Source: Leucoraja ocellata (lineage: Eukaryota). Taken from it: a DNA stretch of 64,000 bases. The translations under genes and the position numbers were made by a program. Shown piece after piece: positions 12,434 through 57,295 of the stretch (positions within the stretch are counted from its first letter, which is position 1; each line of letters begins with the position of its first letter). The stretch lies in the NCBI GenBank assembly GCA_036785375.1, contig JAWMAR010000079.1, positions 1,240,001-1,304,000 of the forward strand. The letters run 5' to 3'. The notes under the pieces are model-generated. The model saw nothing but the letters and a program-made list of their open reading frames with translations. It was not told the DNA's origin and made no database searches.

Positions 12434-12660
12434 CAGTGCCCTCCATAAGGTTTGGGACACGATACAAGATACATTTATTCGTCACATGTACCAAATGGTA
12501 CAGTGAAATGTGTGGTCAAAGACTCATCATTTATTTATTTGCCTCTGTACTCCACAATTTGAGATTTGTAATAGAAAAAATCACGTGTGGTTAAAGTGAA
12601 CATTGTCAGATTTTAATAAAGGCCATTTTTATACATTTTGGTTTCACCGTGTAGAAATTA
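12434..12660. mobile_element. Solo Tc1 TIR fragment (same family as 4192-5921), interrupted by a LINE tail
   Basis: cagtgccctccataaggtttgggaca...aaagactcatcatttatttatttgcct...gtagaaatta closely matches the TIRs above. Confidence 0.88.
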
Positions 12661-16554: not shown

Positions 16555-16862
16555 AGTTTAGTTTAGGGATACATCACGGAAACAGGCCCTTTGGCCCATC
16601 GGGTCTGCGCCGACCAGCGATCCCTGCACATTAACACCATCCTACACACACTAGGGCCAATTTACATTTATACCAAGCCATTAACCTACAACCTGCACGT
16701 CTTTGGAGTGTGGGAGGAAACTGAAGATCTCGGAGAAACCCCAGGCTGGTCACGGGGAAAATGTACAAACTCCGTACAGCGAGCATCCGTAGTCAGGATC
16801 GGACCTGTTTCTCCAGCGCTGCAAGCTCCGTAAGGCAGCAACTCTACCACTGCTCGGCCATG
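16555..16862 (-). mobile_element. tRNA-derived V-SINE (HE1/Mermaid-like)
   Basis: Reverse strand reads ...agtggtagagttgctgccttac...gagtttgtacattttccccgtgacc...gtttcctcccacactccaaagacgtgcagg..., with a taaac-type tail. Confidence 0.8.
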
Positions 16863-16954: not shown

Positions 16955-17185
16955 TGAAACAGTCATATACCCTCGGCCCAACTTGCCCATGCCGGCTGAG
17001 ATGCCCCATCTACGCTAGTCCCACCAGCCCGTGTCTGGCCCATATCCCTCTAAACCTTTCTTATCCATGTAACTGTCCAAATGTTTTTTAAATGTTGTTA
17101 AAGTACTTGCCTCAACTACCTCCTCTGGCAACACGTTCCATATACCCACAACCATCTGTGTGAATAAAATTGCCCCTTAGGTTCC
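16955..17185 (-). mobile_element. CR1 LINE 3' fragment
   Basis: Reverse complement of the CR1 3' end seen at 383-665. Confidence 0.75.
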
Positions 17186-18094: not shown

Positions 18095-18201
18095 GATGGA
18101 GGAACCCCCCTTCTGTTGGCCGCCCAGTCATGCCATCCAGTGGCCTGTCGACTTTTACTGGATCGGGGAGCAGACATCAACTCCAGAGATAAAGAAAACA
18201 G
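18095..18201 (+). CDS. UACA: UACA exon, ankyrin repeat: [36 protein letters not shown]
   Basis: ttcag acceptor, AG|gtaatt donor; 107 nt; GxTPL ankyrin motif. Confidence 0.94.
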
Positions 18202-19224
18202 GTAATTTGGACAAATTTTTTTTTTTAAGTTTGAACAAAGTCTGTCCATGTTGATTGAGGAAATGGCAATTCATCTTGGTGTTATGAGCAATCCAGTAAT
18301 TCCAGTAATTCATTGGTAGACGGTGTGAATTAATGTTAATAGGGCAAGCTTTATTTCCAAGCAGAAGAAAGACACAAAATGTTGGAGTAATTCAGCGGTA
18401 GGATCTCTGAAGAAAAGGAACAGGTGATTTTTCGGATCGGAGGCCTTCAGACTGGGAGACATTTCTAAGCATCCTACTTCCCATTATTAGTGAGGTTGCG
18501 TGCTATTCACAGAACAGAATCCAGCCTGCCTTCGAGCTGCATAAGACCATTCTCCCACCCTTTTCATTACTTCTGACTGTAATTCTTCGCTTATTCTTTG
18601 ATTCCATCTTTGCTAGTTCCCTTGCCTCTCCCTGTGGGGTGAGTTTCTCTCTCTCTCAAATCTCCCAGTAAAGGAATTATTCTCATTTTTGTTTTACTTT
18701 GTTTGATGACTGTATCTGAGATAGATGGTACTGGTTATGGTGCTCAAGCAAGTTTTTTCATTTAACCTTATACTCCTAACAACTCAGAAGGCCATACTGG
18801 CTCTTTGTATCTGGCTCTTGGGAGCAATTGCCTCACCTTATACTCCTGTAATACATCTCTCTCTCTCATTCTCTCTATAATGTGCATCAACTGACCTATC
18901 ATTCTGTTTTGCCATTTATTACAACTGTCAATGGAGTGATTTATTATTGTCAGCTTAATTACCAGCATGATTTTGGGATGTGGGAGGAAACCAAATAGTG
19001 TACCTGGTAACAAAGTGTCAAGATATATGGGGGAATATGATACTAAAGGCGACTGTGACTACTGGTCATCTTGTTGGCAGAGCAGGTATGAAGGGCTGAT
19101 TGGTCTACTCTTGAATTTCTGTGGATGTGCCACATCCACTTTGTCCACCACTAATTTGGAGCCCCTGTACTTTGTGAGACACTGTACTTTGCTTCCAACG
19201 TCTAACATGGGACTTTTATTTTAG

Positions 19225-19704: not shown

Positions 19705-19935
19705 TGGCACCATGGTAGTGCTGGTATATCTCAGTTACTGAGTTTGCTGCGGACCTCAGGTGTTCTCTGTGTAGAATTCGCACGTTCTTCTTGTGACTGA
19801 GTGGGTTTACTCCAGGTGTTCCGGTTTCCTCCCGCATCCCAGGGGTTTATCGGTTAATTGGCCTTTGTAAATTTCTCCCAGTATGTAGGAAATGGATGGG
19901 AAAGTGGGATAACTGAAGAGCCAGTGATTCAGTGA
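19705..19935 (+). mobile_element. V-SINE copy
   Basis: ggcaccatggtag...gtgggtttactccaggtgttccggtttcctcccgcatccc V-domain. Confidence 0.7.
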
Positions 19936-21306
19936 GAAGGAAACTCCAGTGTAGCCAGTGGATTGGGGCTGGGTTGCAGTGTTAATATGGGGAGCTGAGT
20001 GCCTAGGAGAATAGGGCTGGTGATAAGCTCTGGTATTTGTGGTGCACAGTCTGACATTGGTGCTGCATGGAGGCTTCTTCAAAGTTGACCATGAAATATT
20101 TAAAGAGACTGCTCGACAGTAAAGAGTTGATAGGCATAAGAAGTATGTGTGGATGGGAGTGAAAGAAAGTGGGAGTAGGCTAGAGTGGAGTATTAACATC
20201 GTCACAGCCCTCTTGGATTGAATAACGTGCTTCTCTCTGCTCGTTTCAAAAATAGACCGTTACTCCATTGGCCTTGTCTGGCCTGCATCACCCAGATCCA
20301 TGCTGGGCCAAACATCTGACACAATCAACCATTTACACGCTAGGCTGGGAAACTATGTCTGGGAGGGGGTGGGCTACTGATTTGCACATACACTTTGACT
20401 TTGATCTAATTTGTATTCCATGCATTATCTTTGTTTTGATTTTGCCATTTGAGTGTCTGGGGCGCAGTGTGTGAAATGGCTTGATAAATACAGGTTTGAA
20501 ACGTTAGTATTTATTCTGGCCAATTTGAAGAGATTCTTGCAATGTGCTTTAGATATACTGAATCACAATTTCCACCCACCTAATATATCTATGCAAGAAT
20601 GAAATGCCACAAAGGGTGTTTGAATGAGCGTGTGTGTGCGCATGAATAACGTAGCCTTGTTGTAATTCTGAAGCATGTTGGACATGGATGAGGCACAAGA
20701 TTGCTGCAGCAAAGATGAATTGCCTGCGAATCATGTTAAGCTTAAAACTATTACTCGCATGCTTCAAAGGGCGCAAGTGTAATCTGCTGCCTGAAAGGCC
20801 AGGGTCATAGATCCAGAGATACTTGTTGATAAGGAATTGGATGTGTACTTGAAAAAGATTGCAACGCTATGGCGAAAGAATAGTGGAATGTTGTTAATGC
20901 AATCGCTCCTTCAAAGTAGCAGCAGAAACATGATGTGTAAATGACCAGCTGCTAATGTTTCTTTGTCAACCGTTCAGTATTTTTTATGAAGCTGAGTTAC
21001 AACCACACGCACAACATTGTGGTGCTTTGCCACGTTAAATGTTCATTATAAATGCAAATTGAGGTACAAAGCCATCATAGGATGCCACTAAGTACATGCG
21101 TTTGATAAATAATCTGTTTATTCTTTGTTAATAGATTGCAAATGTGGGGACACTTTTGTGTGTAATTAAAATGGTTTTATCCAGTGAAGTATATTGTAAT
21201 TGTCCACAAAAAACAGTTAATTGCGATGAGGTAGCTAATGTCTTGAACCAATCCACTACGCATTTTTCTGCATCAGTTGAAAGGGCCACACCTGTGAATA
21301 TGAGGA

Positions 21307-21742
21307 AGATAGACGCAAAGTGCTGGAGTAACTCAGCGGGTCAGGCAGCATCTCTGGAGAAAAAGGGAGAGTGATGTTTCGGGTCGGGACTCTTCTTCAG
21401 ACTAAAAGTAGAGGGGAAGGAACTGGAAGTACGAAAAGGCCAGAACAAAGCAGGTCTGTTAACAGATGATCGTGGAAGGGTGGAGCCCATAAAGGTCCAT
21501 TGTTGGCTGGTGAACAGGTGATAAAGAAGGGATGCAAGATTGCGAACAGTAGAACTAGTAGGCGCTTGGTCTCGCCGATATATAGGAGCCCACACCAAGA
21601 ACAGCGGATACAGTAGATTAAGTTGGAGGAAGTGCAGGTGAACCTCTGCCTCACCTGAAAGGACTATTGGGGACCCTGGTTGGAGTTGAGGGAGGAGGTA
21701 CAAGTACAGGTGTTGCGTATACCCCTGTAGCTGGGGAAAGTT
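21307..21742 (-). mobile_element. Penelope-like retroelement fragment (GIY-YIG remnant plus terminal repeat)
   Basis: Minus-strand translation RQRFTCTSSNLIYCIRCSWCGLLYIGETKR has the PLE GIY-YIG CxxC..YIG signature. Flanked by the 16-bp direct repeat cctgtgaatat(g/a)agga at 21291-21306 and 21743-21758. Confidence 0.88.
21370..21403 (-). ncRNA. Minimal hammerhead-ribozyme-like motif in PLE terminus
   Basis: Reverse strand: AGU CUGAAGA A GAGUCCCGACCC GAAAC AUC ACU. Core boxes intact, 3-bp stem I, one mismatch in stem II. Confidence 0.5.
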
Positions 21743-22639
21743 CCTGTGAATATAAGGATGGTGTGAACCATTGCAGTTTGGGTAACCTGTGCTTGAATTT
21801 CGACATCTTAATTGTGGTAAATGAGAATGGAAGAAGGGTCTCGATCTGGAATGTTGTCTGGCAGTTTCTCTCCTTGATGCTGCTTGACCCGCTGAGTTCC
21901 TCCACCAATTAGTTTTTTCTGCTCAACTTGTAATGGATGTTTGATGGCAAGGAATTGAATGAAATACTCAAACTAACTCTGTTAAATCAGTGTCCGGAGT
22001 TTAACATATAACTCTACAGTGCCACCTCCTGATTGCAGAGTGGATTACCCCGGCAGTGTTGCAGACTTAAACTGTATGCACAGCTGTGGTGTGCAAAGAT
22101 CGCTCTAATATCTTTGGTGGTGTGTGTGGGGGATTTCAACGTCAGACCTCAGATTTACGAGCAATTAGTTCAAAATCTGAGTTAATTATGCTGTCGTTAA
22201 TGTGAAAGATTATTGGATTATTCATTGGCGCTGATTGCAAGCGTTTGCGTATTATTGGCTGCCACCATAAATCGTGACGTAGTGCAGACACTGATTTTCA
22301 AAATGTATTTGTATAACGTCCATACCTCAGTGCATTCTGCACCTTCTCAACTAATTAAGAACATTATGCACTCATATTTCTTCACAGCAGGAAAGGATGC
22401 CATTCAGCCCATTCCTCTACTTATATCCCTGTGATCTATTGTCACTCTCATAGAGAAATAGGTGCAGGAGTAGGCCATTTGGCCCTTCGAGCCAGCACTC
22501 TCATGCCCATTAACGTGTGATTCTCCAACCACCCATCTGCATTTTGGGGTAATTTACAGTAACCAATTAACCTACTGCCCGGCCTGTCTTTTAGTCTCTT
22601 CAGCCTCTGTTGTACTTGCAATATATAATATTGGTACAA

Positions 22640-24817: not shown

Positions 24818-25107
24818 GAGTTTAGCGATACAGCTTGGAAACAGGCCCTTCGGATCAGAGTCCACACTGACCATCGGTCACCTGTTCACACTCGTTCTAT
24901 TTTATCCCACTTTCACATCCGCTCCCTACACACTAGGGGCAATTTGCAGAGGCCAATTAATCTACAAAGCTGCACGCCTTTGGGATGGGAGAGGAAACTG
25001 GAGCGCCCGGAGAATGTGCAAACTCCACCCAAACAGTAGCGTTCTGGATCGAGCCTAGGTCTCTGGTGCTGTGAGGAAGCCTCTCCACCAGCTGTGCCAC
25101 TGTGCCG
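24818..25107 (-). mobile_element. V-SINE copy
   Basis: Reverse strand starts cggcacagtggcacagctggtggagag... and contains the V-domain. Confidence 0.8.
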
Positions 25108-25983
25108 CATTTAAAGATTTGGACAATGTGGTCCAGGCAAAGGCAAGTGGGACTGGCTCAGTTTATCAGACAAAATCTGTCGGGCTTTTCTTTTATTTGT
25201 TCCCTGCTATTGGCTTTTCACTTTGTGAACGTTTGTCAATGTGAAAGGTTAGTTTCTAGTTTCAACACGTGTGTGTGTGTATATGTATAGAGCGTTGTGA
25301 TTATTAACACACAATTTTGTTCTAGCTCGTAGAATTTGCACATTAGGAGCAATTTTCACATTATGAACAGGACTTTGAATTATTGGTTTTTCAGACAGAA
25401 ATGCAGCTCCATGAATATTACATGTAGAAGTTGGCTTTCTACACGTTGAATTGTTCCCATTTGTGACATCCAAACATAGGGCAACTTTTGTCTATTCCGT
25501 CGTGAATTGTGGGTGTCATGATAGACCAACATTTATTCCCCATTCCTAATAGCTCAGAATGTGATGAGCTGCCTTCTTGAACTGTTGCAGTCCTTTTGTT
25601 GAAGGCGGCACCCTCAGTGCTGTTGGAGAAGGAATTCCAGGACTTTGACCCAGCAATAGAAAGACTGGTGCTTACATCCATGTCAGCCTAGTGTGTCTTG
25701 TGTTGGGTGCATTCTTGTCTGCTGCCTAGGTCTTCCTCAGTGTCAGAGGTGCCTTAAGAGATGCCTTCAATGATGTTGGTCTATGAATTGTATGTAAGTG
25801 GAACTAACTGTTACAAAGGTGTTCTTGCACAATTACTTTGCCACCCATGTACTGTCTCTCTCTCTGTGTAATCTATTTCCTTGCTAACCTTTGTTCACGA
25901 ATTATACAATCTGGATTGCAGAGGAAGGTTAAATTTGTGTTCATAATTCGCGCTGTTAATATTTTGCCTTTTTACCCCCACAG

Positions 25984-26021
25984 TGAGAGACTCCAGTGTG
26001 AAACCACACCAAGTTTCTCAG
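25984..26021 (+). CDS. UACA: UACA small linker exon: VRDSSVKPHQVSQ
   Basis: Long pyrimidine tract plus cacag, CAG|gtaagt; 38 nt supplies the required phase 1 to 0 change. Confidence 0.8.
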
Positions 26022-26191
26022 GTAAGTCTTGAAAAATACTGCACGTACACATCAGTAAATGACCTGCAGATATCGGAAATCTGAAATGAAGCAAGAAATG
26101 GTGGAAACACTCAGCAGGTCATGCCGAATCTGTGGAGAGAGAAACGGTCAATGTTTTGGATTCAAGACCCTTCAACAGGACCCTTCAACAG

Positions 26192-26522
26192 GAAATTGGA
26201 GGAACAGCACCTCATATTCCGCCTGGGTTGCTTGCGTCCGGATGGCATGACAATTGAATTCTCCCAATTCTCCCAATTTTAGCTAGCCCTTGCTGTCTCC
26301 TCCTCTTCCTTAACCCTCGAGCTGTCTCCTCCCATTCCCCCGCCCTCGGGCTCCTCCTTCTCCCTTTTTTCTTCCTTCTCCCCACCCCCCATCAGTCTGA
26401 AGAAGGGTTTCGGCCTGAAACGTCACCTATTTCCTTCGCTCCATAGTTGCTGCTGCACCCGCTGAGTTTCTCCAGCATTTTTGTGTACCTTCGATCTTCC
26501 AGCATCTGCAGTTCCTTCTTGA
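26192..26522 (+). mobile_element. Penelope-like element 3' end (ORF C-terminus plus terminal repeat)
   Basis: Encodes KLEEQHLIFRLGCLRPDGMTIEF, followed by a pyrimidine-rich UTR and the shared terminal repeat; flanked by acccttcaacag repeats. Confidence 0.85.
26393..26428 (+). ncRNA. Minimal hammerhead-ribozyme-like motif in PLE terminus
   Basis: CAGU CUGAAGA AGGGUUUCGGCCU GAAAC GUC ACCU. Intact core, GUC triplet, palindromic ACGU in place of stem III. Confidence 0.55.
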
Positions 26523-29155
26523 ACCCTTCAACAGCACTGAGTTGACTCCGCTTCTCTTTCCAGAGGTTCTGCCGTGCCAGCTGAATGTTTCCAACAATTC
26601 CTGTTCTTATTATGATTCTTTTCATGGCTGAATTAATTCCCGACATACATTTGGAGTTGAGAATGGTTTGAGTGAATGATAATGGTGCTTTTATTTATTT
26701 TTTAATGTAGGGTGCCTTCTTGGTCCGATGGGAATAAATGGCAATTGGAGACTTGGTTCTATGGTCGAACTTTAAAGTTCAACTCATAGTACAAAGACGG
26801 ACTGAATCATACCAAGCTTTTGCCCAATCTCAATATACAATCCTCAACAGTTCTGCATCTTGCTGACTCCTACCCCTCTCATCCCCTCACTGGGTTATTT
26901 TGTTGTCCCCTCACTGACCTCTACATTTTGACCCCTCCTCTGCTCCCCTTATCTTTTGTCCAACCCAACTTCCTGAAGAGAATCTTGATGGGTGGTGGGG
27001 AAGAACTCCTTGGCCACATTCTCGGATGTTGCCTGATGTTTAATGGTTTAGTTAGTTTAATAACTAAAGCTGGTGACCTGTACTGTTGATCCCGAGATGC
27101 AAGTTCAAATCCCACCAGAGCAAAATGGGAATTTTATTCAAGTAATTAAATAAACCTGGAGTAAAAGGCTAATCTCAGTAGAGGTGACTATGACTCTTCT
27201 GAAAACCTACCATTTGGCCCAACAAAGGCTTTTGAAGGCCTCTATGGATCTCCTTACGCACCAAAAAAACATAGTAATAGAATTAGGCCATTCACCTCAT
27301 CCAGTCTACTCCATCATTCAATTATGGCTGGTCTATTTTTCCCTCTCAGTCCCATTCTGCTGTCTTCTCCCTGATAAGACTCATATCTGCTATCTGAAAT
27401 AACCCAGAAAATTCAGCAGAAATGGGCAATATATACCAGTCTTTCCAGTGAGTTGGACTACACTGTATTTTTCATGCATTGAAAGAGTCCATTTCATCCA
27501 GTGACTCCAGATTGCCTTGGAGAATCCCATTTCCCCACTAATTTCTATGGGACCTATTCTGTCACATGCCCATGCACTTCCCTCTGATTCATCTGCACCA
27601 GGGATGTGGGCTGCCATTTAGCCCACCGACCCACTCATCCTTAGCATGGGGGAGGAAACGGGAGGAACATCAGAAGGAAGCCCACTTGATCACGGAGAGA
27701 ATGTACAAACTCTGCACAACCATCAGCAGATGCAGGAATAGATACAGGTCACTCGTACTGTGAAGCAGCATCACTACCTACCACCATCCCCAGATACCTA
27801 GTGATTTTCTAAAGATTATTTTTGACAATTGTAAATGTTTTTATCTTGGTAATTCTTGCAGTAAGCCATTGCACTTCGAAATTGGTTCTTGACAGCTTTT
27901 GTTGTGATCAGCCATCTGTTGGCAATTACAGCTGTTCCCTTTGTTTCACGATTCTCCACTCCTGCACTCATGCTGTTTTCAAAGCTTACATGGTGAAATT
28001 TGAGAATGATGGGGAGGAAGATGATTACATTTCAATCTGTGTTTTAGAATAAGGATGACTGTATAAATGGGTATCTTGGATCGGGGCGTTTGTGATTATT
28101 GCGCAAGGTCATTACCTGGTTTTTGGAAAGAAGGAAATTGAATTACATTAAAATGTCTACTTAAACCTCCAGGCTGTAGAGCACAGTGGATAATTCCAGG
28201 AGATTTTGAAAGATCTTAAGCAGTGAAGACATCAGCAGTGAAGTCTGCTGGCGCTGTTAAATGCACTTTGAATGGATTACTTTTTTATGAGATGCTGACT
28301 TTTCTGAAATAATAAATTCAATTACGGGGACCAGTTTATCTCTTCCTGTTTTGTTGGTATTTGAGTAGTTGCTGTGGCAGTTCCAAAAAGATGGCCATTA
28401 GGATTACCGGTCTCCAATCTTTTGTGGAGCTTTCCTCCAAAATGTGGGCTGATCCCTGGGCACATCCCTTTGGCCATTATCAACGAAGAATTTTTTTTGG
28501 AGTGGAGATAGGCTGAAATACAGAATACTGAATTTTGAGTATCGAAGTCCAATATAATATTAATGGAAGGAGATTTATTCTGGATCCCAAACCTCCCATC
28601 TCATTGGAGACCTCAATTTGTTCTGCATCACTAACCCCACAATTCACTGTGGACCACCATGCCAATAATCTCCCATCTCATTATGTTCTGCACCTCTGAC
28701 CCCACAACTCATTGTAGTCCACCATTTATTCTATACCTCTAACTCACATCTCATTGTAGACCACCGTTAATTTGGTGTCCACTATCGTTAGTTTACAAAG
28801 AAGCATCTTAACTCAGAAGCTGACACTCGCAAAGTGTTTATTCATTGAGACAGTAACGTGTATAGAAGAAATGAGGATTGGGCAACACATCATCTGCATA
28901 GCACCTGTACCTTTTGCTGTTTGTTTGCAACCAAAACTAATTATTACTATCTAATCTCTTGCTGCAGCACTGATTCAAAGTTTAGATGGATCAGAGGAAA
29001 GGTCATGTTAAATGTCATCTGATCGCTGTGAATGAACTGAGCCACACAGATATTCAATCACAGATAATTCAGTGCACACAAGCTTGAGACTTTGTTTCAT
29101 CATTGAAAAAATCCAGTATTTAAAGTGATTGCATTATTTTCCTTAAAAATTACAG

Positions 29156-29245
29156 GCTGCTGAAATGCCACAGAAGCCAGATCAAAGACATCTTCCAGTC
29201 GAAACCAATTTGGCACCGAGTCAGAAGGAGCAGCGCACTATAAAG
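29156..29245 (+). CDS. UACA: UACA linker exon: AAEMPQKPDQRHLPVETNLAPSQKEQRTIK
   Basis: ttacag acceptor, AAG|gtatta donor; 90 nt open in phase 0. Confidence 0.75.
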
Positions 29246-29526
29246 GTATTATTGTAGCATGTTCTTTAACCAGCTGAAGGAAAAAAACAAACTGCTGGAG
29301 GTCTTGACCTGAAATGTTGACAACTAGTTTCCTTTCACAGACACTGCTCGACTTTCTGAATTCCTCCAAACAGTATTCTTTGTTGCTCTGGAGTCCAGCC
29401 TCTGCAGTCTCTTGTGTCCCTAACATCTTTGAAGGTCCATTGTCAATAGTCCCCTCATTGAATAAAGTATTTACTCTGATGCAATACAGTTCATGGGATG
29501 ACCCTGGCTTGGCAGATATTACTGTT

Positions 29527-29681
29527 TAAGAAGGAACTGCAGATGCTGGAAAATCGAAAATGCTGGAGAAACTCAGCGGGTTTGAAGTCTGAAGAAGGGT
29601 TTCGACCCGAAACGTTGCCCATTTCCTTCGCTCCATAGATGCTGCCTCACCCGCTGAGTTTCTCCAGCATTTGTGTCTACC
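29527..29681 (+). mobile_element. Short fold-back PLE-terminus insertion with 17-bp TSD
   Basis: TSD tggcagatattactgtt at 29510-29526 and 29682-29698; perfect 24-bp inverted arms at 29558-29581 and 29649-29672. Confidence 0.85.
29586..29619 (+). ncRNA. Minimal hammerhead-ribozyme-like motif
   Basis: AGU CUGAAGA A GGGU-UUCG-ACCC GAAAC GUU GCC. Perfect stem II with a UUCG tetraloop; AACGUU palindrome; weak stem I. Confidence 0.55.
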
Positions 29682-30546
29682 TGGCAGATATTACTGTTGT
29701 CTCTGAATTCAACAGATTGAGGGTTCAATTCCCATCACTGAGATTGTAGCACCAGTACTACAGGCCTGCTGGATCTCCCAGTTGCTAACCATTTTAACTC
29801 CCCTTCCCATTCCCACACCAACCTTCCTGTAAGGTTTAAAAACTCATCACCTTGCTCCTGTCTGAAGGTTATGGAAAACACCAATTATCCATCGAGCAAT
29901 GCTGGGGTTGGGCAGTCAGGACCATGCTGGATGTCAGAAACCTTTGCAAGTATCTGCAAATGAGCCAAATAACTCTTCTCCTCTCACTCTTTTACTTTAT
30001 GCTACCATTCATTTGATAGGCAACGTTAAGCAAGCGCTTTTTCCAATCAACATTTCAACGCTCATTATGTTTTTAACTAGTAGCACTTCTATTTTTATTT
30101 TTTTAATTTACAAACAACTTTTACTCAACTGTATCCGAATGAATCTGAAATTCAGACAGCAAAAGTTGTAGAGTATCAGGCACCCATGAGTAGAACTGCA
30201 CTTTAACAGCCGATTGTGCTGCAGACAAGGGTTAGCAGCAGCTGAAGGGCCATATGTCGTAAAATGTCAATGCAGACGGCCATGACGAGGCACCATCATT
30301 AGCCTGAGGAAGAGTGCCAACCCAAAATGTCACCTACCCACTCCCTCCACACGTACTGCCCGGCCCGCCGAGTTACTCCAGCACTTTGTGTTTGTTCACC
30401 ATCATTAAACTGTTTCCCCTTCCATGGATGATGCCTGACATGCTGCACCCTGCACATTGTTATTTCAGGCCTCCAGTATCTCCAGAGAATGGTGCTTCAA
30501 CCCTTTAGGGTCAGAGTTATACATTAAGGTTTTGGACACGCTAGAG

Positions 30547-32957: not shown

Positions 32958-35327
32958 GTACGTCAGTAAAAATCTGCATATAACTGGACCGTCAACAAGG
33001 GGAAAAAAATCCATGGTTGTTTCATTGCTAAACAACATTTGACATCGAATCACGGCAAAATTAGGGCAATTTGTTAAAAAGCTTGGTCAAAGAGGCAGTT
33101 TCTCAAGAGCATCTTGAAGAAGAATTGGTAATGGCAAAGAAGTTGGGAGAGGGAATTCTGGAACGAAGAGCATTGGCAGCTGAAGGCACAGACACCCGCG
33201 GAGGAGCAAACAGGTTAAGAGGATCGAGATTTGAGGAGTGAGGAAATTACGAGTTAGGGAGATGATGAAACGTGCATAGATTTTAAAATTGGAGACTTGT
33301 TCTTTCAGGAGCCAGCGGATCAGTGAGCATGGTGTGGTGGTGTGTATTAGGACGTGGGCAAAAGTTTTGGCTGATTTTAGGTTGATGGAGAGAAGTGTAT
33401 TAGGATGGCAGCGTGGAAGTAAAAACCAGTGCAAAATGAATAGTGCTTTAGGATAAATGTCCTCGTGATAAAGTCAGCTTTCAGCCATAGGTGAGCAGAG
33501 GCAAGGCAGTCAGTGATGAGGAGAAACAGCTGTTTTAATGATGGAGATAACAGGCCCACTTCACATATCTGCTACTTGTTTGTGGAGTCCAGACTCCATT
33601 ACTTCTCTTATGTCTGTGGCTCAAAACCTACCAAAACTCCAAAGAATTCTTGAATATCTATAAAAGTTGATATATCGATGCAAGAAACTCTAGATGTTGG
33701 AATTTTGAGCATGAAACAAAATGCTGGAGGAACTCAATGGCTCAGGCAGCATATGCCAGTCTGAAGAAGGAACTTGACTCGAAATATCATTGGGCTGTTC
33801 CCCATACAGATGCTGCCTGACATGTTGATTACCGCCAGCACTTTGTGTTTGCTTAAAGGTTATATGTCCCTCAGGATGTTTGGATACGCAGAAAGTGGAA
33901 TGTAATACTAATTACTGGGCGTTACACTTGCGTCTTTATTGATTTATTTCAGATGTATTTATGGCTGGCAAGGCCCCATTTATTTTTTGCCCCTCCCTAA
34001 CCATCCCTTGGGAGTGTGTATTTAGCTTAGCCCATTGCTCTCACTGCTGTTTTACTGGTAGTTCCTGGATATTGACGTATTTCAGAACCGTGTGTGAACT
34101 GGATGGAAACTTACATCTGTTGTCAGTCCTGTCCCCCTGCTGTTCTTGACCTGTTGCGTGAGTTCTAAGCTTGGCAAATACTGTGATAGAGACTAAGCAA
34201 ATGAATATGCTGTATTTTGTAGATAGTCCACACTACAATTGTGAAACTGCTGCTGAATATCTCGGGCTGTAGGTTAGTGGTATAACAATTGGGTACCTGT
34301 GTAAAAATGTAATCCTCATTTTATTCTGCAGCAGAATAATTGAAAATAAAATGACAGACTCATTGTTCGTGCCCATGAATGTTTATTTATATAAATTCTG
34401 GGGTGCCCTATTTAAAGTAATTAATCATCTAATTTCCACTTCAAACACATTGACTTGCGGTCATTGAAAATAAAAGTATTTTAATTCTATCCAAACCGAT
34501 TGATGCTCTCTAATGCAAATATGGTAATTATTTTCTATTAACTCGTTTCTTCATCCACTCCCACATGCAAAGTGCCTTGTATCCAATCAGCCAAATGTCA
34601 TTTGCAAGTACAATACATTGAAATAATATTAAAGTAATGAGAGTAATCTTCAGAGCATTTTGCAATATATGTAATTATATGCAAAGAGTTTTACTATAAT
34701 TTACTGAAATGACCAAGCAAAGGTTAGCAATTTTCCGATCAGGCAGTGCTTTTTTGTGAAAATATAACTCGGCTACTGATATTGGAATGGCAGAGTGATT
34801 ACATTGCAATCCAATGATGCAGATTTGTTTTATCAGCATGACATTTGTGTGCATTCCTATCTAGCTGTGTCTCTTGCTGTGAATTCATGCTCTTCTTTCT
34901 TTTACTTTCATTCCCTGGTCATTGATTCTCTTATCTTCAAACAGAACATGCTTACCAGCTCATTCATTTCACGACCACCTCTTCTCATCTCTGAGCTATT
35001 TTCCAATGTTAACCTCTGACTTTCCACGGACTAGAGTGTGGATCCCTCTCCTTTCTGGAATCTGTGGGCTTTCAGAATTTAATCGTGGCATCGCCCACCT
35101 GCTACTTTAGTTCCTCTAACACTTTTCATCTATGGCAATCTTGGGCATTATGGTCCTTGGGTTTTCAGAGACTCAGTGAGGAATTGAACACTTAGTTATT
35201 TGGAAATTTTGTCGTTACTGTAAGTGCAGCCAGAAATGTCACGTGTGATCAAATAACTGATATGATAGGGTGGTCTCCGTGAAATGCTTTGTGGCTTTTG
35301 GTAAATGTTGTTGTTCCCATTATACAG

Positions 35328-41850: not shown

Positions 41851-42574
41851 GCGCTCTCCATTTAGATTACAATCTGCCTTTTGATTTCTCTTCCAAAGTT
41901 CATGACCTGGCACTTCCACAGATTAATCTCCCTTTGCGTGTATTTCACCCAGACGCTTGATCCATGTACATCCCATTGCAGAATTTCAGTTTCCTGACCC
42001 CAACCTGCCCTTACTCATATTTTCAAATTATCAGTAGGTTTTCTTCTATCATCTCCACTTGTTACATCCTTCTGTGCTCTTAACTATCTGTGACTTACGC
42101 AACCTATTTTATGAATAGGCCTTTAATTTAGACCACCCCACTTTAATGAGTGCATATTCAAACAAAATTTGAGTACAAAGCTCTTGGGTTACATCAGTGG
42201 AGTGGTAGCAGAGAACAAAATTATACTCTTATTCTAATGTGATTGAAATCCCACCAGGGCAATTTCAATTCTGTTATGATCTCAATAAATTGTCTGAGAA
42301 AAAGAGTTAATATCAGGAACGATATCTTTCAAATGGAATTCCATTAAAAGCTCATCTCTAAACTTCTCTGGCGAAGAAAATCTTAAATTTTTGGCTTATC
42401 TGTAATATAGGCGATCATAAATCCAGAGCAAGGTGTGTGTGACCCTTAAGAGCCTGTCCCACTAACGCGACTTTTCAGCGACTGTCTTCAACCTTCAAGC
42501 TCGAGGGCACTCGCCTGAAGAACTTCGAGCTGGATCGACCGTCAGCGATGAAACCGCCAGCCAGATCGACCGTC

Positions 42575-42928
42575 CACACACACACGCCCCACACACGCAC
42601 ACAAGCCCCACACACACCCCACACGCCCCACACATACACACGCCCCACACACACCCCACACACATACACACGCCCCACACACCCCACACATACACACGCC
42701 CCACACACACACACACACACATACACACGCCCCACACATACACACGCCCCACACACGCCCCACACACACACACACACACACACACCCCACACATACACAC
42801 GCCCCACACACACACATACACACGCCCCACACACACACACACACACACACACACGCCCCACACACACACACACACCCCACACATACACACGCCCCACACA
42901 CATACACACGCCCCACACACATACACAC
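42575..42928. repeat. CA-rich compound micro/minisatellite (catacacacgccccacacac variants)
   Basis: Seen directly; runs into the N gap. Confidence 0.95.
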
Positions 42929-43102
42929 NNNNNNNNNNNNNNNNNNNNNNNNNNNNNNNNNNNNNNNNNNNNNNNNNNNNNNNNNNNNNNNNNNNNNNNN
43001 NNNNNNNNNNNNNNNNNNNNNNNNNNNNNNNNNNNNNNNNNNNNNNNNNNNNNNNNNNNNNNNNNNNNNNNNNNNNNNNNNNNNNNNNNNNNNNNNNNNN
43101 NN
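42929..43102. other. Assembly gap (174 N)
   Basis: Run of n. Confidence 0.99.
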
Positions 43103-44911
43103 GGGAAAGCGGGGGAGCGCTGTCTGAAATTCACACCCGCGATGAACAGGAAGGTAAATGACGGCTGGCACAGTAACGGCAAGTCCTATAGAGAGCGCGT
43201 AGAGGGGGGGAGAAGGGGGGAAGAAGGAGTGGAGGCACTTTTAAGAAGCCAATCTTTTAATAACGTTTAGCGGGCATTTAACATTACCGGTCAGTTTTTC
43301 TCAACGAGCTTTACCTACGACTACCTTTGATTAGCTTTGATTGCCTTTGATTACCTACGATAGCATTACGATCTACTATGACCTACCTCGACTAAATCTA
43401 CGAGAAAAAAAATATTGATTTTTTTTTTCTTTTCTTTATTTTCTTTTTTTCCCCCCCTTTTTTTTACTCGCGGGCATTTTTCAGCATGTTGAACAAAACG
43501 CAGCGACCTAGCTGAGGCCTCGAGTATGCAGGGACTACTCTCAAGCATGAAGGAGAGTTACAAAGACCTCCTTGGACCTCGTGTCGACCATGCTGCGAGT
43601 ACGAGTCGAGGGCAAACTCTTCTAAACTTGCGAATTAGGTCGCCGCAGTGGGACAGGCTCTTTACTTTTTCATACATTATGATAGCATTCTGCTCGGTTT
43701 AGGAATAATTGGTAAATACTGGTTTGCTAACAGACCCGAGGTTTTGGGCAAAGTAGTACATCTGGAAGAATTTGAGGCAGGTGATAATATCATTAACTGC
43801 AACAATGAAATTGTCTGGAATTAGCAGAGTGCAGATATCTTGGAGCTTGTAGGGCTGTAGAAGATAAAGCAGATTTGGAAGGACAAAGCCATGGAGACTT
43901 CACAGTTTAAAATGTTAAGATATTTAACGAGAAACTAAATGAGGCATCCCTAATACTCTGGTTAAAAATTGGTAATTAACTGGTTCCCCTGGAGAAGCCT
44001 ACATGGTCAACTCTTACTGTCTTCAGGACAACCATGGTTGAATCTATTCACACACCCTTTCCCCAGCAATCATAATGCAGTTCATTAACAAAAAATCCTA
44101 ACTCTTAGGTGTTAAATCAACTATTCAACCAATATCAGTTGGCATCGGCAGAAATTACAAGCTTTTGTTACCCTGTGTGTAGAAATGCTTCTGAACTTCA
44201 TCGCAGAATTTTCCAATCAATGACCCCCTTGTCTCAAATTCCAGTGAAATAATTGTTATTACACCTATTATTTCCCCCTTCAAAATGCAGGAAGTAAACA
44301 ATGGGACAGTCAATCTGATTGCCATAGGATGAAGGATATCATTCAGTTGTGGCTGTTTCTTGTTTTTGTGTCCCTCTGAGCCATATTCCAGATGTCTACA
44401 TTCTTCTGCAGTGCAATTACAGTACAGATACAGGAAAAAAGTCAAAATTAATTTGTCTGGTTCTGTTGATGCCTCCAAGTTACGTATTTGAAATAGTCAT
44501 GTTCTGAATCAGGTCTTCAATCTCTCTTTTGGTTGATAATATTGACTGAATTACAGAGTGAGTGCAATCCACAATACATTCCAATCCCTCTGCACGCCAT
44601 GCCCAAACTCTTTCTTGTTAACTTTCAACTCCTTCAAAGATTGTGTGGTATGTTTTGCTGGCTTGAATTAATTTTTCATTCATTTTGAGATTTGTTTTTG
44701 AAGCAGAGGATAAAACTGTTTTTCCATTATTTGGGTGCTCTTTCTCTGACATTGTGGTCCTGTTAAAGAATACCATTATTTTCCCAATGATGTGGTTTAA
44801 CATTTATTCTAAGGAAAAAAAGACTTGCATGTAAGCAGACACGAAGCTGGATGGAGCTGTACCTCATTGATCCTTTAAGATCTACACCAGGGCAGCCTGG
44901 ATCCTGGAGAT

Positions 44912-45132
44912 AGACACAAAATGCTGGAGTAACTCAACGGGACAGGCGGCAAATCTGGAGCGAAGGGATGGGTGACGTTTCAGGTCGAGTCTCTTCTTCG
45001 TGTCCAAAGAACGTTCTTGACCCAAAACGTCACCCATTCCTTCTCTCCAGAGATGCTGCCTGTCTCTCTGAGTTACTCCAGCATTTTTTCTATCTTTGGT
45101 TTAAACCGGCATCAGCAGTTTCTTCCTATACA
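44912..45132. mobile_element. Fold-back PLE-terminus insertion with about 15-bp TSD
   Basis: Head-to-head inverted copies of the PLE terminal repeat; ctgg(a/t)tcctggagat at 44897-44911 and 45133-45147. Confidence 0.8.
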
Positions 45133-45504
45133 CTGGTTCCTGGAGATCTAGGTGCTCACAGCTAAACTTGTGATTGTACAGAGGTCAAGAATGGAGAAGC
45201 AAAGTTTAGTCCCTCTGTAATTAGCAATGATGCCTTTAGCTTTCAAGACTTGACAGTCTGTGATTCCCTTTGTAAATCCCCCCTTCTCTTTCAAGATGTT
45301 CCTTCAAACATTGCTTTGACCAAGCATTTGATCTGTCTGAATACCACCTCTTGTGACCACCTCTTTTTATTCATTGGATAAAAAGCTGTAATAACCAAAC
45401 GTTGCACATTGTAATTATGCTGAATTTGCTGTTTCAATACTAGTTGCTGGTAGAGCTTCCCATTTACTCTCAATGAACCTTGTGTGTTGATGTTATGATT
45501 GCAG

Positions 45505-47554: not shown

Positions 47555-47870
47555 GGTACAGTGTCACAGCTGGTACAGTCGCTGCCTCACGGCACCAGAG
47601 ACCCTAGTTCAATCCTGACTTCGGGTGGCTGTCTGTCTGGAGTTCAGCACATTCTCCCTGTAACTACATGAGTTTCCTCCGGGTGCTTTGGTTTCCCACA
47701 CATTGCAAAGACATCTGGGTTTGTCAGTTAATTGGCCTCTGTATATTGCCCCTAATGTGTAGTGAGTGGATTAAGTGGGATAACATTGAACTAGTGACAA
47801 TGGGTGATTGATGGTCACGTGGACTCGGCAGGCCAAATGGCCTGTTCCCATGCTGTATCTTTAAACTAAG
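47555..47870 (+). mobile_element. V-SINE copy
   Basis: ggtacagtgtcacagctggtacagtcgctgcctcacggcaccagagaccctagttcaatcctgac head plus V-domain. Confidence 0.8.
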
Positions 47871-48427
47871 AAGCATTCCATTTTGGAGATGTTTCAATGG
47901 TTTTAATACAATTTCTTATGTAAGTGCCCTCCATAAGCAGGCAGCTTTATTTTATACATATAGATTAGGCCAACAACATTATTAGAAACAGGTAGATATT
48001 TTGCCAAAATGTTGGTTATTACCAACAATAAGATTAGTAATTATTATAGTATTTATTATAGTGTACTGAAACACAGTGAAAACTTTTTTGTCAAATCATG
48101 CTATACCTGAGTACTATCAAGCCATGCACAAGTACGAAGCAAAGAGAGAAAATACCGAGTGCAGTATATAGTGTTACAGCATTATGGCATTGCAGTTATA
48201 GAGAAACTGCAGCTAAAAAAGTGCAAGGTTTGCAATGAGGTAAGTTGGGAGATTGGGTCTACTTGGTTGAGGTCTATAGGTCACGATAGTTTGCCTCAAA
48301 TTGATGAAATAACATTTAGGATCACGGCACCATTTGCCAAATAGTTTCACAAAATTACCACGCGTTTTGGATATTTCATTCAACTTGTTATGCTGTAGTA
48401 ATGGCTTTCTAAATATTTTTATTACAG

Positions 48428-51139
48428 CATTCTTCCAAATCGGCTGTTGGGTCAAGTGATATGTTGCTGATTGATCACGGCATGCCTGGTACATATGAAA
48501 ACGTGAAGGATCTGGAGATGATGAGGAGGTGGTTTGAGACGGCAAAGAAGGAGAAGGGCAGTCTCCAGCAGGAGCTAGTGAGCAGGAATAAGCAGTGTGA
48601 TGTCCTGAGAGATGAGTGCAACCGTGTGAAGCAGGAATCGGATGAGCAGATTAGACAGCTGGAGGATGCGTTGAATGATGTGCAGAAGCGAATGTTTGAG
48701 TCGGAAGGTAAAGTGAAGATCCTACAAGCGCATGTTAATGCCCTGAAGGATCACCTTTCAAAGCAGGGCTCAGCGGGAAGCAACAGGATGGCGGAAGATC
48801 TTAAAAATCAGCTGAGAGAAGTGAAATCGAAATACGAGGAAGCTGTGGGTAATGTGGAGAGGTTGGAGCACCAAATTAAACTGGGTGCTTTATCGATCGA
48901 GGAACCGGTTGCGGCACTGGATGTGGAGCAGCACATGAAGGAGGTGAAAGAGCTGCAGAAGGCTTTGAGCGCGGCAGAGCAAAGGAAGCAAGAGGCAGAG
49001 AAAAGGGTCAGTGCAGTTGAAGGTGAACTGAAGAGCGTGAAGGCAAAGCTGTCGCAGTGCGTGCAGGCAGAGGAGTTCGAGAACATGAGGAACTCGTTCC
49101 TCAGTACGTTGGAAGAGAAGGAGAAGCAGGTGGCGTCGGCGGGGAATAAGTACGAGAGAGCGCAGGTGGAAGTTGTTCAATTGCAGAAGGACTTGGAGCG
49201 AGAGCGAGCCCAGATAACGGCATGTGTGAAGATTGAGCAGTATCAGTTGCTGAAGGGAAAGTTGGAGAACCAGAATGGTATCCTTACTGATGTTACGCAG
49301 AAGCATCAGAAGGTGCAGAAGGAAAATGAAGCTATTAAACTGGAGAACGGTACTATCAAAGCTGAGCTGGAAGACTTCAAACACAAACTTAAAACACATT
49401 ACGTACCTTTGAAGATGCATGACGAAATGAAATCTTCAGTGAACCAGGCAGTTCGAGATCTGAACAAGCAAATTTCTGAGGTTTCACAAAGGCACAAGGA
49501 CGCTTTGAGAGAAGCAGAAGGGTTAAGACTTGAGAAGAACACAATAAGTGAAAACCTAAATCATGTGAAGTCTCTATACGTTCCTCCAGAGAAACACAAA
49601 GAGGAGATAATAGCGCTGAATTCCATCTTGGGCAGCTCGAAGAAGGAACTGGATGAACTCAACAAGAAGTATGGCCAGGCACAACAAGAGACTGAGAATG
49701 TACTCAAAGAAATCGTTACCGTGAAAGAATCATTGAAGAATCAATATGTGCCCTTGGAAAAGCACGAAGAACTAAGAACCCACCTGAGCACGACTTCAGA
49801 GAAAGCTGCGATCGAGCTGTCGACTGTGATGCAGAAATGCAATGTAGTACAAGACGAATTGGCAAAGTGTGAGCAGGAAAATAAGGAACTGAAAGACCAG
49901 CTGGCTGAACTGTGCAATGAAGTGCAGAGAGACTACGTAAGTCTTCAGCAGCATGAAGAAATGAAGGCTGCCTGGAACAGAAAAGAGGAGGGACTTCAAA
50001 AGCAGGTTGAACACACTCAATTGAATTACAAGGAGATTCAGGAGCAGGTTGTGGCACTAAACAAGGAAAAGGAAAGCCAGGTGAACAGATTTCGAACACT
50101 GCAAGAATCCATCAAGTCACAGTTTATTCCCATTGAAAATTACAAGGAAAACCAGAATGCAGTTAATGCCATGGTGAATAACCTGAAGAATCAATTGTCA
50201 GAGAAAACTCAGCAATGTTCTGTGTTTCAAGGGAAAGCCGATCGATACAAGGGGGAGACGGAAGAGCTGATGAAAAAGGTTACACAGTTGGAGGGAAATC
50301 TGGAATGCCATTACATTTCCAAAGCCGTGTATGAAGAAATGGAAAGCAAGTTTGTCAGTGGTATGGAAGAAAAGGATGAGCAAGTGGAAGAAGTGAAGAA
50401 GAGGATTGGGGATTCTGAATTACAGAATGAAAGGTCACAGGCAGAGAATGCCAGGCTGCAGTTGGCTGCCCAAGTGTTGGAAGAGAAAATAAGGTTAGAA
50501 TACATTCCCGTTGAGGAGCTTGAAAGCATGAAAACATCGCTGAGCAGCAGAGTTGCTGAGCTGCAGCAGGAAAAAGAACAAGTGAAGGACTCTTTGGAGC
50601 AGGAGGAAGAGAAAGTAGCCACTCTCCTCCTCCAGTTGGATGATCAGAGGAAAGATTATCTACTACTTCAACAGCACAATGAGTTGAAAGAGAAGATGGA
50701 AGAAGATATTGTAGGGCTGAAGAACCAGATGAATGAGAGGGAGGAAGAAATGAAAGGGAAAGTTTTAGAGATTTCCAAGCTGCACATGGATACGGAAGCA
50801 ATGTCGAGAACAATAACAGAACTGGAGGCAAGGCAAGTATTGGACTTGTCAGAGCACAAAAGGGTGAAGACCTCTTTAGAAGCACAGATACACTCATTAA
50901 ATGAAAACCTGGCCAAGTTGAAGGAGAAGCACGAGCAAATGTCTACTGAAGTGTTGCGTGCCAAAGAGAAAGAACTATCAGCTAAAGATGAAAAGGAGAC
51001 CTTTCAATCGAAAACATTCAGCTTTGAACAGGAAATTAAAGAGCTGAAAAATAAATATGATGAATCCATGGCAACAATCTGTGATTTGCAGAAAAGTATT
51101 CAGGAATCTGCCAAGCAAATTGAGGCCAAGGATAACAAG
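48428..51139 (+). CDS. UACA: UACA giant coiled-coil exon (2712 nt, 904 codons)
   Basis: attacag acceptor in frame with the 929-aa ORF. Contains ESDEQIRQLEDALNDVQKRMFESEGKVK and ends KQIEAKDNK|gtaata. Confidence 0.95.
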
Positions 51140-51521
51140 GTAATATTGAAGGAAATTGCCTTATTATTGGCAATGACATCTGGGCACTGTGGGTATTTCT
51201 TTGTTTTCATTTCTCAGACTGTCAAAGATAAATGTAAAATTATTAGCTAACCCAGTAAGAAGTTTGGGGCAAACATCTATACACAAAGTTTGTTGAAAAT
51301 CTGGTATTTGCTTGGTAGAGTGAGTTGGGGAAATAAAGTGAGGGAAAGGGAAGTGAGGGTGCGCTGAGAGTAATGGGCCAAATGGCCGCATCCTCTGTTA
51401 TGAGGAAATCTGAAATGTGAGAGATACTGAAACTCCACTCTTGAATGAAATGACTGGTAATTATTGAGAGGATGGGTTTCAAGGTGTTTTATTGTGGGCT
51501 CCAGTAACTCTATAGAGCAGC

Positions 51522-51780
51522 ATGGTGGCACAGTCACTTTCAGGGGCAGTCTGTACGGAGTTTGTATGTTCTCCCTGTGAAGGCATGGGTTTTCCCCGGG
51601 TGCTCTGGTTTCTTCCCACACTGCAAAGACATACAGGTTTGTCTGTTATTTGGCTTTGGTAAAAATTGTAAATTGTCGCTAGTGTGTAGGAGGGTGTTAG
51701 TGTACGGGGATTGCAGGTCGGTGCGGTCTCTGTGGGCAACAGAGATCCTGTTTCTGCACTCTATCTCAAAACTAAACTAA
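51522..51780 (+). mobile_element. V-SINE copy
   Basis: ggtggcacag...gggttttccccgggtgctctggtttcttcccacac...actaaactaa tail. Confidence 0.8.
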
Positions 51781-52048
51781 GCTGAGATATTTTAATTTAC
51801 AGTTCTTTAAAAATATATAAAATGATGAAATGGATCATTTGCATTTTTTTTGGTTTCTCCTGCAAGACCTAGCTACTCTGGAGTCAAAATCTAATATTAG
51901 AGAGGCAGTTCACAGGATGGAATATTGAACCATTACATTGCCTCTGGTTCAGTGGTGATATTTCCAAGAGCAGAGGTGTTTTCCTCAATGCTGCACCAAA
52001 CAGAATCACTTGAAGAACAAAAACATCACTGACCAGTGGCACTTTCTT

Positions 52049-52257
52049 ATAGAAACAAAGAGTGGCAGATGCTAGTTGATATCAAAGATAGAACACAGTG
52101 CTGGAGTATCTCAGTGGGTCAGGCAGCATCTCTGGAGAGAAAGGTGGTGTTTAGGGTTGGGACCCTTCTTCAGAATCCCGACCCAAAGCGTCATCTATCC
52201 TTTTTCTCCAGAGATGCTGCCTGACCCGCTGAGTCACTCCAGCACTCTGTCTATCAT
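52049..52257. mobile_element. Fold-back PLE-terminus insertion with 12-bp TSD
   Basis: Inverted arms; tggcactttctt at 52037-52048 and 52258-52269. Confidence 0.8.
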
Positions 52258-53064
52258 TGGCACTTTCTTGTTTGAAAAAACCTACTGGGGCAAATTGTCT
52301 GATGCGTTTACATTACAATTGCTGTGAACATCTTTAGAAAATACTAATTATCGAAAAGGTGGTGCAGAAATGAAATCTTATTTGCAGAAGATTGTTTCAG
52401 AAACCTTAGCTTACATTTGATCGTAAATCCATCATGCCTACAGTAAAGCTCCAATAATTCCCGCTCTGACGTTTTGGAAATCCTGATTGTCTGGTATCTC
52501 ACCCAGTAATGTTTGCTGCACTCCCTTACGACTTGCAGAGGTTCGAGACTCTGCATGGGTTCTCATGCATCCTTTAACCTTGCCATGTTCCCAGGGAAAT
52601 TAATTTTTTAAAGATTGTGTAATGTACCAACATTTTCCAAAACAAATTCAAGTTGTGTTGGGGTGGTAATAAGAGACAATGGGTTATGGATGTTGGAATC
52701 TGGAGCAAAAGATGAACTGCTGGAGGAATTCAGTGGGTTGGGCAACATCTGTAAACACTTTGGGTTGAGACTCTGCATGGGCCCTGATGGGGTGTCTTGA
52801 CCCAAATCGTCGACTGTCCCTTTGCCTGATCTGCTGCGTTCCTCCAGCAGTGTGATTTTTGCCTGATGTTAATTCTGATCATTCAGTCGTCTGAAAAAGT
52901 TCCGCTGTCACCAGAAGTGCAGATTGTTGAAGTTTTACTGCATCATGTCTATCCTGCCTTGCGTTGTGACGACTTGCTTTGTGACTTGACCAACTGCGAC
53001 TGTTGAAGGAAGTGGTGTGTGAATTGACCAGTTGTACATTTTCTTCCCCCTCTCCTCTGGATAG

Positions 53065-57076: not shown

Positions 57077-57295
57077 TCTGTACGGAGTTTATAATTTCTT
57101 CCTGTGTCCGCTTGGGTTTTCCCCGGGTGCTCCGTTTTCCTCCCATATTCCAAAGACATACAGGATTGTAGGTTAATTGGCTTTGGTAAAAATTGTAAAT
57201 CGTTCCTAGTGTGTAGAATAGTACTAGTGTAAGGGGATTACAGGTTCGTGGGCTGATGGTCTGTTTCCGTGCTGTATCTCTAAACTTACCTAAAC
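57077..57295 (+). mobile_element. 5'-truncated V-SINE just downstream of a UACA donor site
   Basis: tctgtacggagttt...gggttttccccgggtgctccgttttcctccca...ctctaaac. Confidence 0.75.

Follow-up and report, generated by a model that had tools for sequence, protein, structure and literature searches.

The 155-bp unit that lies between the copies of an exact direct repeat at 29510–29698 of the 64,000-nucleotide stretch of DNA analyzed here (the window) consists of two opposite-facing pLTR fragments of a Penelope-like element (PLE), joined head to head. Probably these truncated pieces were integrated in one event, within a 17-bp target-site duplication, and the insertion has been inert since then. 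The original prediction had proposed two origins for the unit, a severely truncated PLE with an inverted terminus or a retrozyme-like RNA. The first was supported by the analyses described below. The second was not, the unit having one hammerhead, no tandem and inverted arms, and a nearest relative that is linked to an open reading frame (ORF).

Anatomy of the insertion and its link to Penelope-like elements

The coordinates of the insertion and of the related features are given in Table 1, in which the family numbering takes A26394 of the ORF-linked copy as +1.

Table 1. Features of the insertion, its host exon and related copies in the window
Feature	Positions	Strand	Remarks
Host exon, 90 nt	29156–29245	+	AG/GT ends; open in phase 0
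Target-site duplication, left copy	29510–29526	+	Last 4 nt also correspond to the family tail end
Inverted (left) arm	29527–29581	-	Family +64 to +131, including the ~33-nt tail
24-bp stem	29558–29672		Arm overlap +64 to +87; pair probability 0.84–1.0
Filler at head-to-head junction, 4 nt	29582–29585		Defined by comparison with the ORF-linked copy at 26394
Direct (right) arm	29586–29682	+	Family +1 to +97; proximal, tail-less terminus
Minimal type-I hammerhead motif	29589–29616	+	CUGAAGA, extra A, 4-bp helix II, GAAAC, palindromic ACGU, GUU
Target-site duplication, right copy	29682–29698	+	17-bp direct repeat
Nearest relative, PLE 3' end	26180–26536	+	ORF C-terminus at 26190–26279, then stop and pyrimidine tract
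Longer, internally deleted PLE copy	21291–21760	-	Zinc-finger-like linker; GIY-YIG remnant
Fold-back, older subfamily	44897–45147		Proximal arm +6 to ~+100; tail arm -1 to +131; 15-bp duplication
Fold-back	52032–52269		Tail arm -1 to +131; proximal arm +11 to +101
Old fold-back	33680–33850		Tail arm +52 to +126; proximal arm -2 to +93
Old fold-back	1040–1204		Proximal arm -2 to +99; tail arm +61 to +126
Decayed fold-back	52689–52872		Tail on left arm only

The two copies of the predicted 17-bp direct repeat were identical at 17/17 positions, with 155 nt between them, and the predicted inverted arms (29558–29581 and 29649–29672) were complementary at 24/24 positions. Chance repeats were rejected as an explanation, the probability of such a direct repeat at the ends of the 155-mer being about 6e-8. 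A flank repeat scoring at least 14 was found in 0 of 400 random flank pairs, and a score of at least 8 was reached at 7 of the 23 family insertions examined but in only 1 of the 400 random pairs. These results agreed with the prediction of a single insertion event accompanied by a target-site duplication. Folding of the whole unit gave a z-score of -4.45. The possibility of a DNA-transposon MITE was considered and rejected: the arms are internal, the ends differ and the duplication is long.

The right arm is 89.7% identical to positions 26394–26490, and the left arm, the only one with a tail, has a 10-nt deletion near 29556/29557. The 10 nt deleted are present in other copies, as seen from a loose end at 29558 in the contigs of public sequencing runs. 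Because of this deletion the stem comprises 24 bp and not the 34 bp that would correspond to the 34-nt overlap of the arms (+64 to +97). No palindrome was present at the junction. In each DNA run, about 200 contigs had family alignments that stopped at 29523, and the first nucleotide of the right duplication copy matches the family's continuation. Since 4 nt and 1 nt within the duplications thus match the family, the boundaries of the element are ambiguous by 4 and 1 nt, respectively, and the 4 matching nt of the left copy possibly represent primer microhomology.

A Penelope-like origin had also been proposed, and it gained support from the nearest relative of the 155-mer, which lies immediately downstream of the C-terminal end of an RT-GIY-YIG ORF. 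This relative (0.90 identity; 0.80 for the runner-up) has its +1 at 26394, a hammerhead, a tail ending at 26524 and its own 12–14-bp duplication. The ORF end of about 30 aa beside it aligned with the last 25 residues of protein P0004 (14/25 identical, E 3e-7), in which RT motifs, a CxxxxxxxC-type linker and a Pfam GIY-YIG domain at the curated cut-off (22.6 bits) were recognized. The longer, internally deleted copy on the minus strand also contains a pyrimidine tract, a hammerhead, the proximal end and a duplication of at most 18 bp with 2 mismatches, and a search with its GIY-YIG remnant (21553–21741, 63 aa, with X at one stop) returned four proteins among six candidates. Pfam detected nothing in the ORF end of about 29–30 aa, and its match to a 36-aa GIY-YIG remnant did not go beyond E 0.056; the link to PLEs was made through homologues. 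P0002 was compared with P0003 and P0005 and aligned with neither, both of these being without the C-terminus concerned. The link was drawn from the 30-aa ORF end and the 63-aa remnant; no full-length PLE was seen. Judged from these sequence matches, the 155-mer can be assigned to the terminal repeat of an EN+ PLE, through its relative at 26394 and not through an ORF of its own. A Cys linker between RT and EN was present in P0001, P0003 and P0004, and this single character suggests a Neptune-type clade; a zinc-finger-like or Cys linker marks Neptune and Nematis PLEs and not Poseidon (PMC8557442). The ORF-linked copy was itself found inserted into the 5' end of an older family copy of opposite strand (26059–26536), and its duplication consists of sequence of that older copy.

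The insertion was predicted to lie in sense orientation downstream of an exon, and this was confirmed: it starts 282 nt past the exon ending at 29245. An ankyrin-repeat exon (18098–18202; Pfam Ank) and a 944-codon coiled-coil exon (48413–51244) are located on the same strand as the insertion. The host gene is presumably UACA; an atlas search with the large coiled-coil exon named no clear family.

Family termini, fold-backs and the proposed integration

A family profile built from ten clear segments identified 31 segments at 24 loci in the window (one locus per 2.7 kb) and none in the reversed-window control, and dozens of partial matches were obtained when the window was searched by BLAST with the 155-mer. 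In each of the three public DNA-type runs searched (3/3), 114,503 to 117,149 contigs matched positions 25900–30300, figures that show a very large family and are not to be read as a copy number. Scanning of viral contigs gave no match, and scanning of metagenome contigs gave seven loci, all of them chance matches of 20–22 nt without further family sequence. The literature covered, which did not include most subscription journals or Repbase, contained no description of the family in cartilaginous fish.

The family has two 3' termini, at about +97 and about +131, some 33 nt apart, and 28 of the 31 segments in the window end in one of the two terminal zones (18 and 10 segments). In the public-run contigs, loose ends of low agreement cluster at 26490–26492/29682 and at 26524/29523. 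The stretch of about 33 nt between the termini is the PLE tail. In described EN+ PLE insertions the tail measures 30–40 bp (PMC3846280; PMC8557442), and in the Anolis element it is the stretch between two RT start sites (PMC11167929).

The 155-mer had been regarded as a unit with shared breakpoints, and this view did not hold, since the six fold-backs of the window differ in their inner breakpoints. Ends that are shared among copies with different duplications were indeed found, but for the single-arm monomer (5' end at about +1, 3' end at about +97 or +131) and not for the 155-mer. By profile, the tail arms have their inner starts at +61, +62, +52, -1 and -1. The inner breakpoints are nevertheless not fully random, the tail arm stopping at +52 to +64 in three of the six fold-backs. 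The fold-back at 52032–52269 is bordered by a 17-bp duplication with 2 mismatches; the flanks of those at 33680–33850 and 1040–1204 showed no convincing duplication, and none was found for that at 52689–52872. The tail was located on exactly one arm in all five clear fold-backs (5/5), and also in the sixth, decayed one; if the fold-backs are independent, this corresponds to P of about 0.02–0.03, calculated post hoc. Two pairs of segments were left out of the fold-back count. In the pair 26059/26353 the second copy has its own duplication. The minus/plus pair at 56371–56662 has about 90 nt of other sequence between its members, no duplication, and proximal ends on both sides; if it was one insertion, it is a counter-example to the one-arm-tail rule.

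In the integration that we propose, the GIY-YIG endonuclease of the element would cut both target strands about 17 nt apart, and each target 3' end would prime reverse transcription on element RNA. Priming at the distal start site (+131) would generate the tail-bearing arm, which would have stopped at +64, and priming at the proximal start site (+97) would generate the arm running to +1. The two cDNA ends would then be joined with the 4-nt filler and filled in, the 24-bp stem representing the overlap of the copies after the later 10-nt deletion. The stop at +1 would most likely mark the RNA 5' end, with stalling of RT at the upstream pyrimidine tract about equally probable. Past the left duplication, the top strand runs antisense to the RNA downward from +131; past the right duplication, the bottom strand does so from +97. 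Each is the product expected if a target 3' end served as RT primer after a cut with a stagger of about 17 nt. Since the family match extends 4 nt into the left duplication and 1 nt into the right one, short primer pairing is possible. In LINE-1 twin priming both target strands also prime cDNA, which results in an inversion inside the duplication, the arms being non-overlapping parts of one RNA with a poly(A) end. In contrast, the arms described here overlap by 34 nt and both derive from the element's own 3' start sites; because of this overlap, two RNAs or strand displacement would be needed.

This arrangement is close to those of known PLEs. A direct pLTR with an adjacent inverted pLTR, a tail on one arm and a target duplication are typical of EN+ PLE insertions, in which solo pLTRs, a hammerhead in the pLTR and an RT-GIY-YIG ORF upstream in longer copies also occur, as in the present family (PMC3846280; PMC8557442). 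Unlike those insertions, the 155-mer has neither an ORF nor a junction palindrome, and duplications in this family measure 11–18 bp, against 8–10 bp in the rotifer examples of the same sources. With the Poseidon PLE of Anolis carolinensis (PAc; PMC11167929) the family shares two 3' termini that define the tail, a geometry that needs priming on both strands, and the lack of RNA ends at the ribozyme site. The PAc protein cuts and extends both target strands in vitro, and ribozyme mutants of the element still insert (PMC11167929). PAc differs in that the proteins related to the present family have a Cys motif between RT and EN, and in that it initiated without homology in vitro, whereas genomic ends here match the target by 1–4 nt. 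The literature covered, which left aside most subscription journals, contained no run-off or two-strand model for such PLEs as those described here.

For rotifer PLEs, palindromes at head-to-head junctions have been read as a sign of self-priming on an antisense or fold-back template (PMC3846280). The fold-back at 1040–1204, whose arms are joined at a 4-nt overlap, would agree with that explanation, and a longer antisense RNA template may be compatible with the layout of the insertion studied here. However, the palindrome is missing from its junction, and a self-folding cDNA is excluded by the presence of +98 to +131 on the left arm only and of +1 to +63 on the right arm only. We consider an origin by self-priming very improbable.

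The insertion at 29510–29698 is thus likely a dead, truncated and inverted PLE copy of a known pattern, and its value lies in being a clean example of PLE integration geometry. The origin of PLE inverted repeats with a one-sided tail was called undefined (PMC8557442), and self-priming (PMC3846280) competes as a model with two-strand cutting and two start sites (PMC11167929). Thousands of such insertions would permit a genome-scale test of the one-arm tail and of the stop at the transcription start.

The hammerhead motif

The predicted motif CUGAAGA-A-GGGU(UUCG)ACCC-GAAAC-GUU was found in the right arm (Table 1). It had been described as an intact core, which proved correct for the conserved letters but not for the helices. 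The conserved letters, the extra nucleotide after A9, G10.1–C11.1, the ACGU palindrome and an NUH triplet are all present. Helix I, however, comprises only 2 bp (U-G plus G-C), and in the context of the insertion the predicted probabilities were 0.002 for helix II and about 0 for helix I (0.017 and 0.005, respectively, in the isolated core). A forced hammerhead fold reached about 1e-5 in the insertion, a competing hairpin over GAAA about 0.3, and the ACGU duplex did not form in a two-copy fold prediction; these values refer to equilibrium folding and ignore help from proteins. An Rfam search at E values up to 10 gave eight matches, none of them a hammerhead and all far below the gathering scores. 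A microRNA precursor and a plastid RNA were considered as candidates and rejected, their Rfam matches reflecting the long stem only.

The metazoan PLE minimal type-I hammerheads (PMC4209133), which come mostly as single copies from truncated PLEs with some opposite-strand pairs, have in common with this motif the core letters, the extra nucleotide, G10.1–C11.1, the palindromic positions 15.2–16.2 and the absence of helix III. The present motif differs in the 4 bp of helix II and the 2 bp of helix I, which are at the short end, in the triplet GUU and in its occurrence on one arm only. In that study minimal hammerheads showed no cleavage as single motifs and weak activity as dimers, and a precedent for a helix I of 2 bp is given there by Penelope of D. 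virilis (PMC4209133). Cleavage by the Anolis ribozyme requires the PLE protein (PMC11167929). Relatives of the 155-mer carry GUC in place of GUU, so that the latter is likely due to CpG decay. All three core motifs were kept in only 2 of 20 aligned segments, the two most alike, and this retention in the two closest copies fits youth and not selection.

RNA reads were also inspected. No pile-up of read beginnings or ends was detected among 12,704 RNA reads, a weak test based on one oligo-dT run of organism B, of which about 5 in 100 reads were sampled and in which the matched reads came mostly from other copies. RNA depth was equal on both strands. A longer helix I created by splicing had no support, the RNA loose ends before 29586 showing an agreement of 0.45. 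The pyrimidine tract and AG that precede the core resemble a splice acceptor, as in D. virilis Penelope. Among the matches listed, several back-joints from just past the hammerhead triplet to about +1 were seen at 26393–26431 / 29586–29629. These are tandem duplications of the core of about 34 nt in other copies, and a partial one is present at 56440–56481; they could have arisen by switching of the template to RNA ends cut by the ribozyme, or simply by slippage.

On these data a mobile, catalytically active retrozyme-like unit that cleaves the host pre-mRNA appears extremely unlikely. Like animal non-LTR retrozymes (bioRxiv 10.64898/2026.07.22.740005), the 155-mer is non-coding, derived from a pLTR and provided with a type-I hammerhead; its core letters and ACGU palindrome are complete, its short helix I has the precedent mentioned above, and the second complete core among the 20 aligned segments, located 3.2 kb upstream on the same strand, would in principle be a dimer partner. 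Retrozymes, however, are defined in that source as tandems with at least two consecutive complete hammerheads, and an inverted pair with a single one is present here. The breakpoints differ in the remaining fold-backs, the 10 nt missing from the 155-mer are retained elsewhere in the family, GUU replaces the GUC of the family and competing folds dominate. Hammerhead segments in sense orientation are not depleted between the exons either (8 on the plus and 4 on the minus strand in 11500–51250), and 8 of 9 Xenopus retrozyme dimers were not cleaved in vitro (bioRxiv 10.64898/2026.07.22.740005). The hammerhead letters came along with the pLTR as passengers, and folding models predict that the hammerhead would neither fold nor cleave in the host pre-mRNA.

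Shared 5' boundary, age of the insertion and neighboring sequences

Twenty of the 31 family segments start at -5 to +13, eight start further in and three extend upstream. Pyrimidine content upstream of the boundary was 0.38–0.60 (background) in the 20 segments versus 0.80–0.95 in the 3 long copies; because of this background value, the shared 5' boundary is not only an effect of a weak profile. A model of constant truncation gave P values from 6e-18 to 5e-6 and was rejected even at a fivefold-raised rate (P 5e-6), the ends of old copies being uncertain by about 10 nt. Random truncation would not produce the boundary of the 20 segments, which a short non-autonomous element could also explain. 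The +1 of the ORF-linked copy is part of TCAGTC, a sequence resembling the initiator consensus. PLE transcripts start inside the pLTR (PMC2377424; PMC6765202), and a rotifer pLTR contains an initiator-like TCACT (PMC3846280). We infer that reverse transcription, primed at the start sites close to the 5' end of PLE RNA, ran off that end and produced the short copies. Alternatively, RT may have stalled on reaching the pyrimidine tract, or the tract may belong to a splice acceptor, for which D. virilis offers a parallel (PMC4209133). The old short copies at 21830 and 47396 have a few extra letters in common just upstream of the core and possibly represent another subfamily or a different 5' exon.

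The shared boundary could also be explained if the monomer (+1 to +97 or +131) were a self-propagating, SINE-like non-autonomous PLE derivative, with its own internal promoter and RT start signal, transcribed from short copies and mobilized in trans, a fold-back then being a double insertion. The common start of the 20 segments and the rejection of constant truncation would be expected from such an element, and the solo short copies at 2559 and 18353, which have their own duplications, point in the same direction. In addition, pLTRs alone supported integration in trans (PMC3846280), and the core bin had about 30 times the RNA depth of the ORF-end bin. Against this, run-off from the 5' end of an ordinary PLE RNA yields identical ends, and the nearest relative of the 155-mer is linked to an ORF. 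Long and short copies intermix in a tree of the 20 of 31 segments that were long enough (97 columns), with 4 changes and 0 of 200 bootstrap trees separating them, although no branch was strongly supported. Family RNA was equal on the two strands (1059 versus 1040), as would be the case if it were carried along in transcripts of other origin. The data do not favor a separate SINE-like lineage, and self-propagation of the monomer with fold-backs arising by double insertion seems improbable to us. In another scenario, rather unlikely as we see it, most family copies would represent one discrete short product that extends from the first transcribed base to either RT start site, and such strong-stop cDNAs of a dimeric PLE enzyme would have become self-propagating, non-tandem and SINE-like, each fold-back using both start sites once, one per strand. 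If this were true, the genome would be a natural record of the in vivo coupling of two PLE start sites.

The age of the insertion that we regard as truncated PLE pLTR pieces was approached through contigs of related organisms. Contigs from organisms B and C (32 differences over 2,821 nt and 65 over 3,022 nt, respectively) cover the unique left flank and extend into the element by 19 and 18 nt before ending, and the right junction is present in organisms A and B. Among the matches listed, no empty site was found in organisms B or C, in which contigs reach 18–19 nt past the left duplication; on the other side contigs begin 27 nt before the right duplication, and overlaps fall below the bridging bar of 31 letters. 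In an empty site the left flank would pass directly into the right one; since element sequence was found at this place instead, the insertion is probably shared with relatives and not recent.

Several other elements were noticed in the window. A GIY-YIG remnant of the same PLE group lies 60 nt past the insertion, at 29762–29830 (frame LLDLPVANHFNSPSHSH; loose end at 29762), and a decayed family copy is present at 29300–29415. An element with terminal inverted repeats of about 225 bp and broken transposase frames (4793–5662) occupies 4189–5924 and is presumably of the Tc1/mariner type; a further end is located at 12507–12660. The 157-codon frame at 1809–2279 resembles what we take to be the C-terminal part of a Rex1/L2-type LINE protein, and CR1-like ends are located at 277–638 and 16970–17185. 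A long low-complexity, (CA)-rich tract at 42443–43267 contains the only assembly gap of the window (42929–43102). A second abundant dispersed repeat occurs at 16555–16779, 19752–19913, 24819–25106, 47555–47867, 51543–51778, 57077–57286 and 61510–61790.
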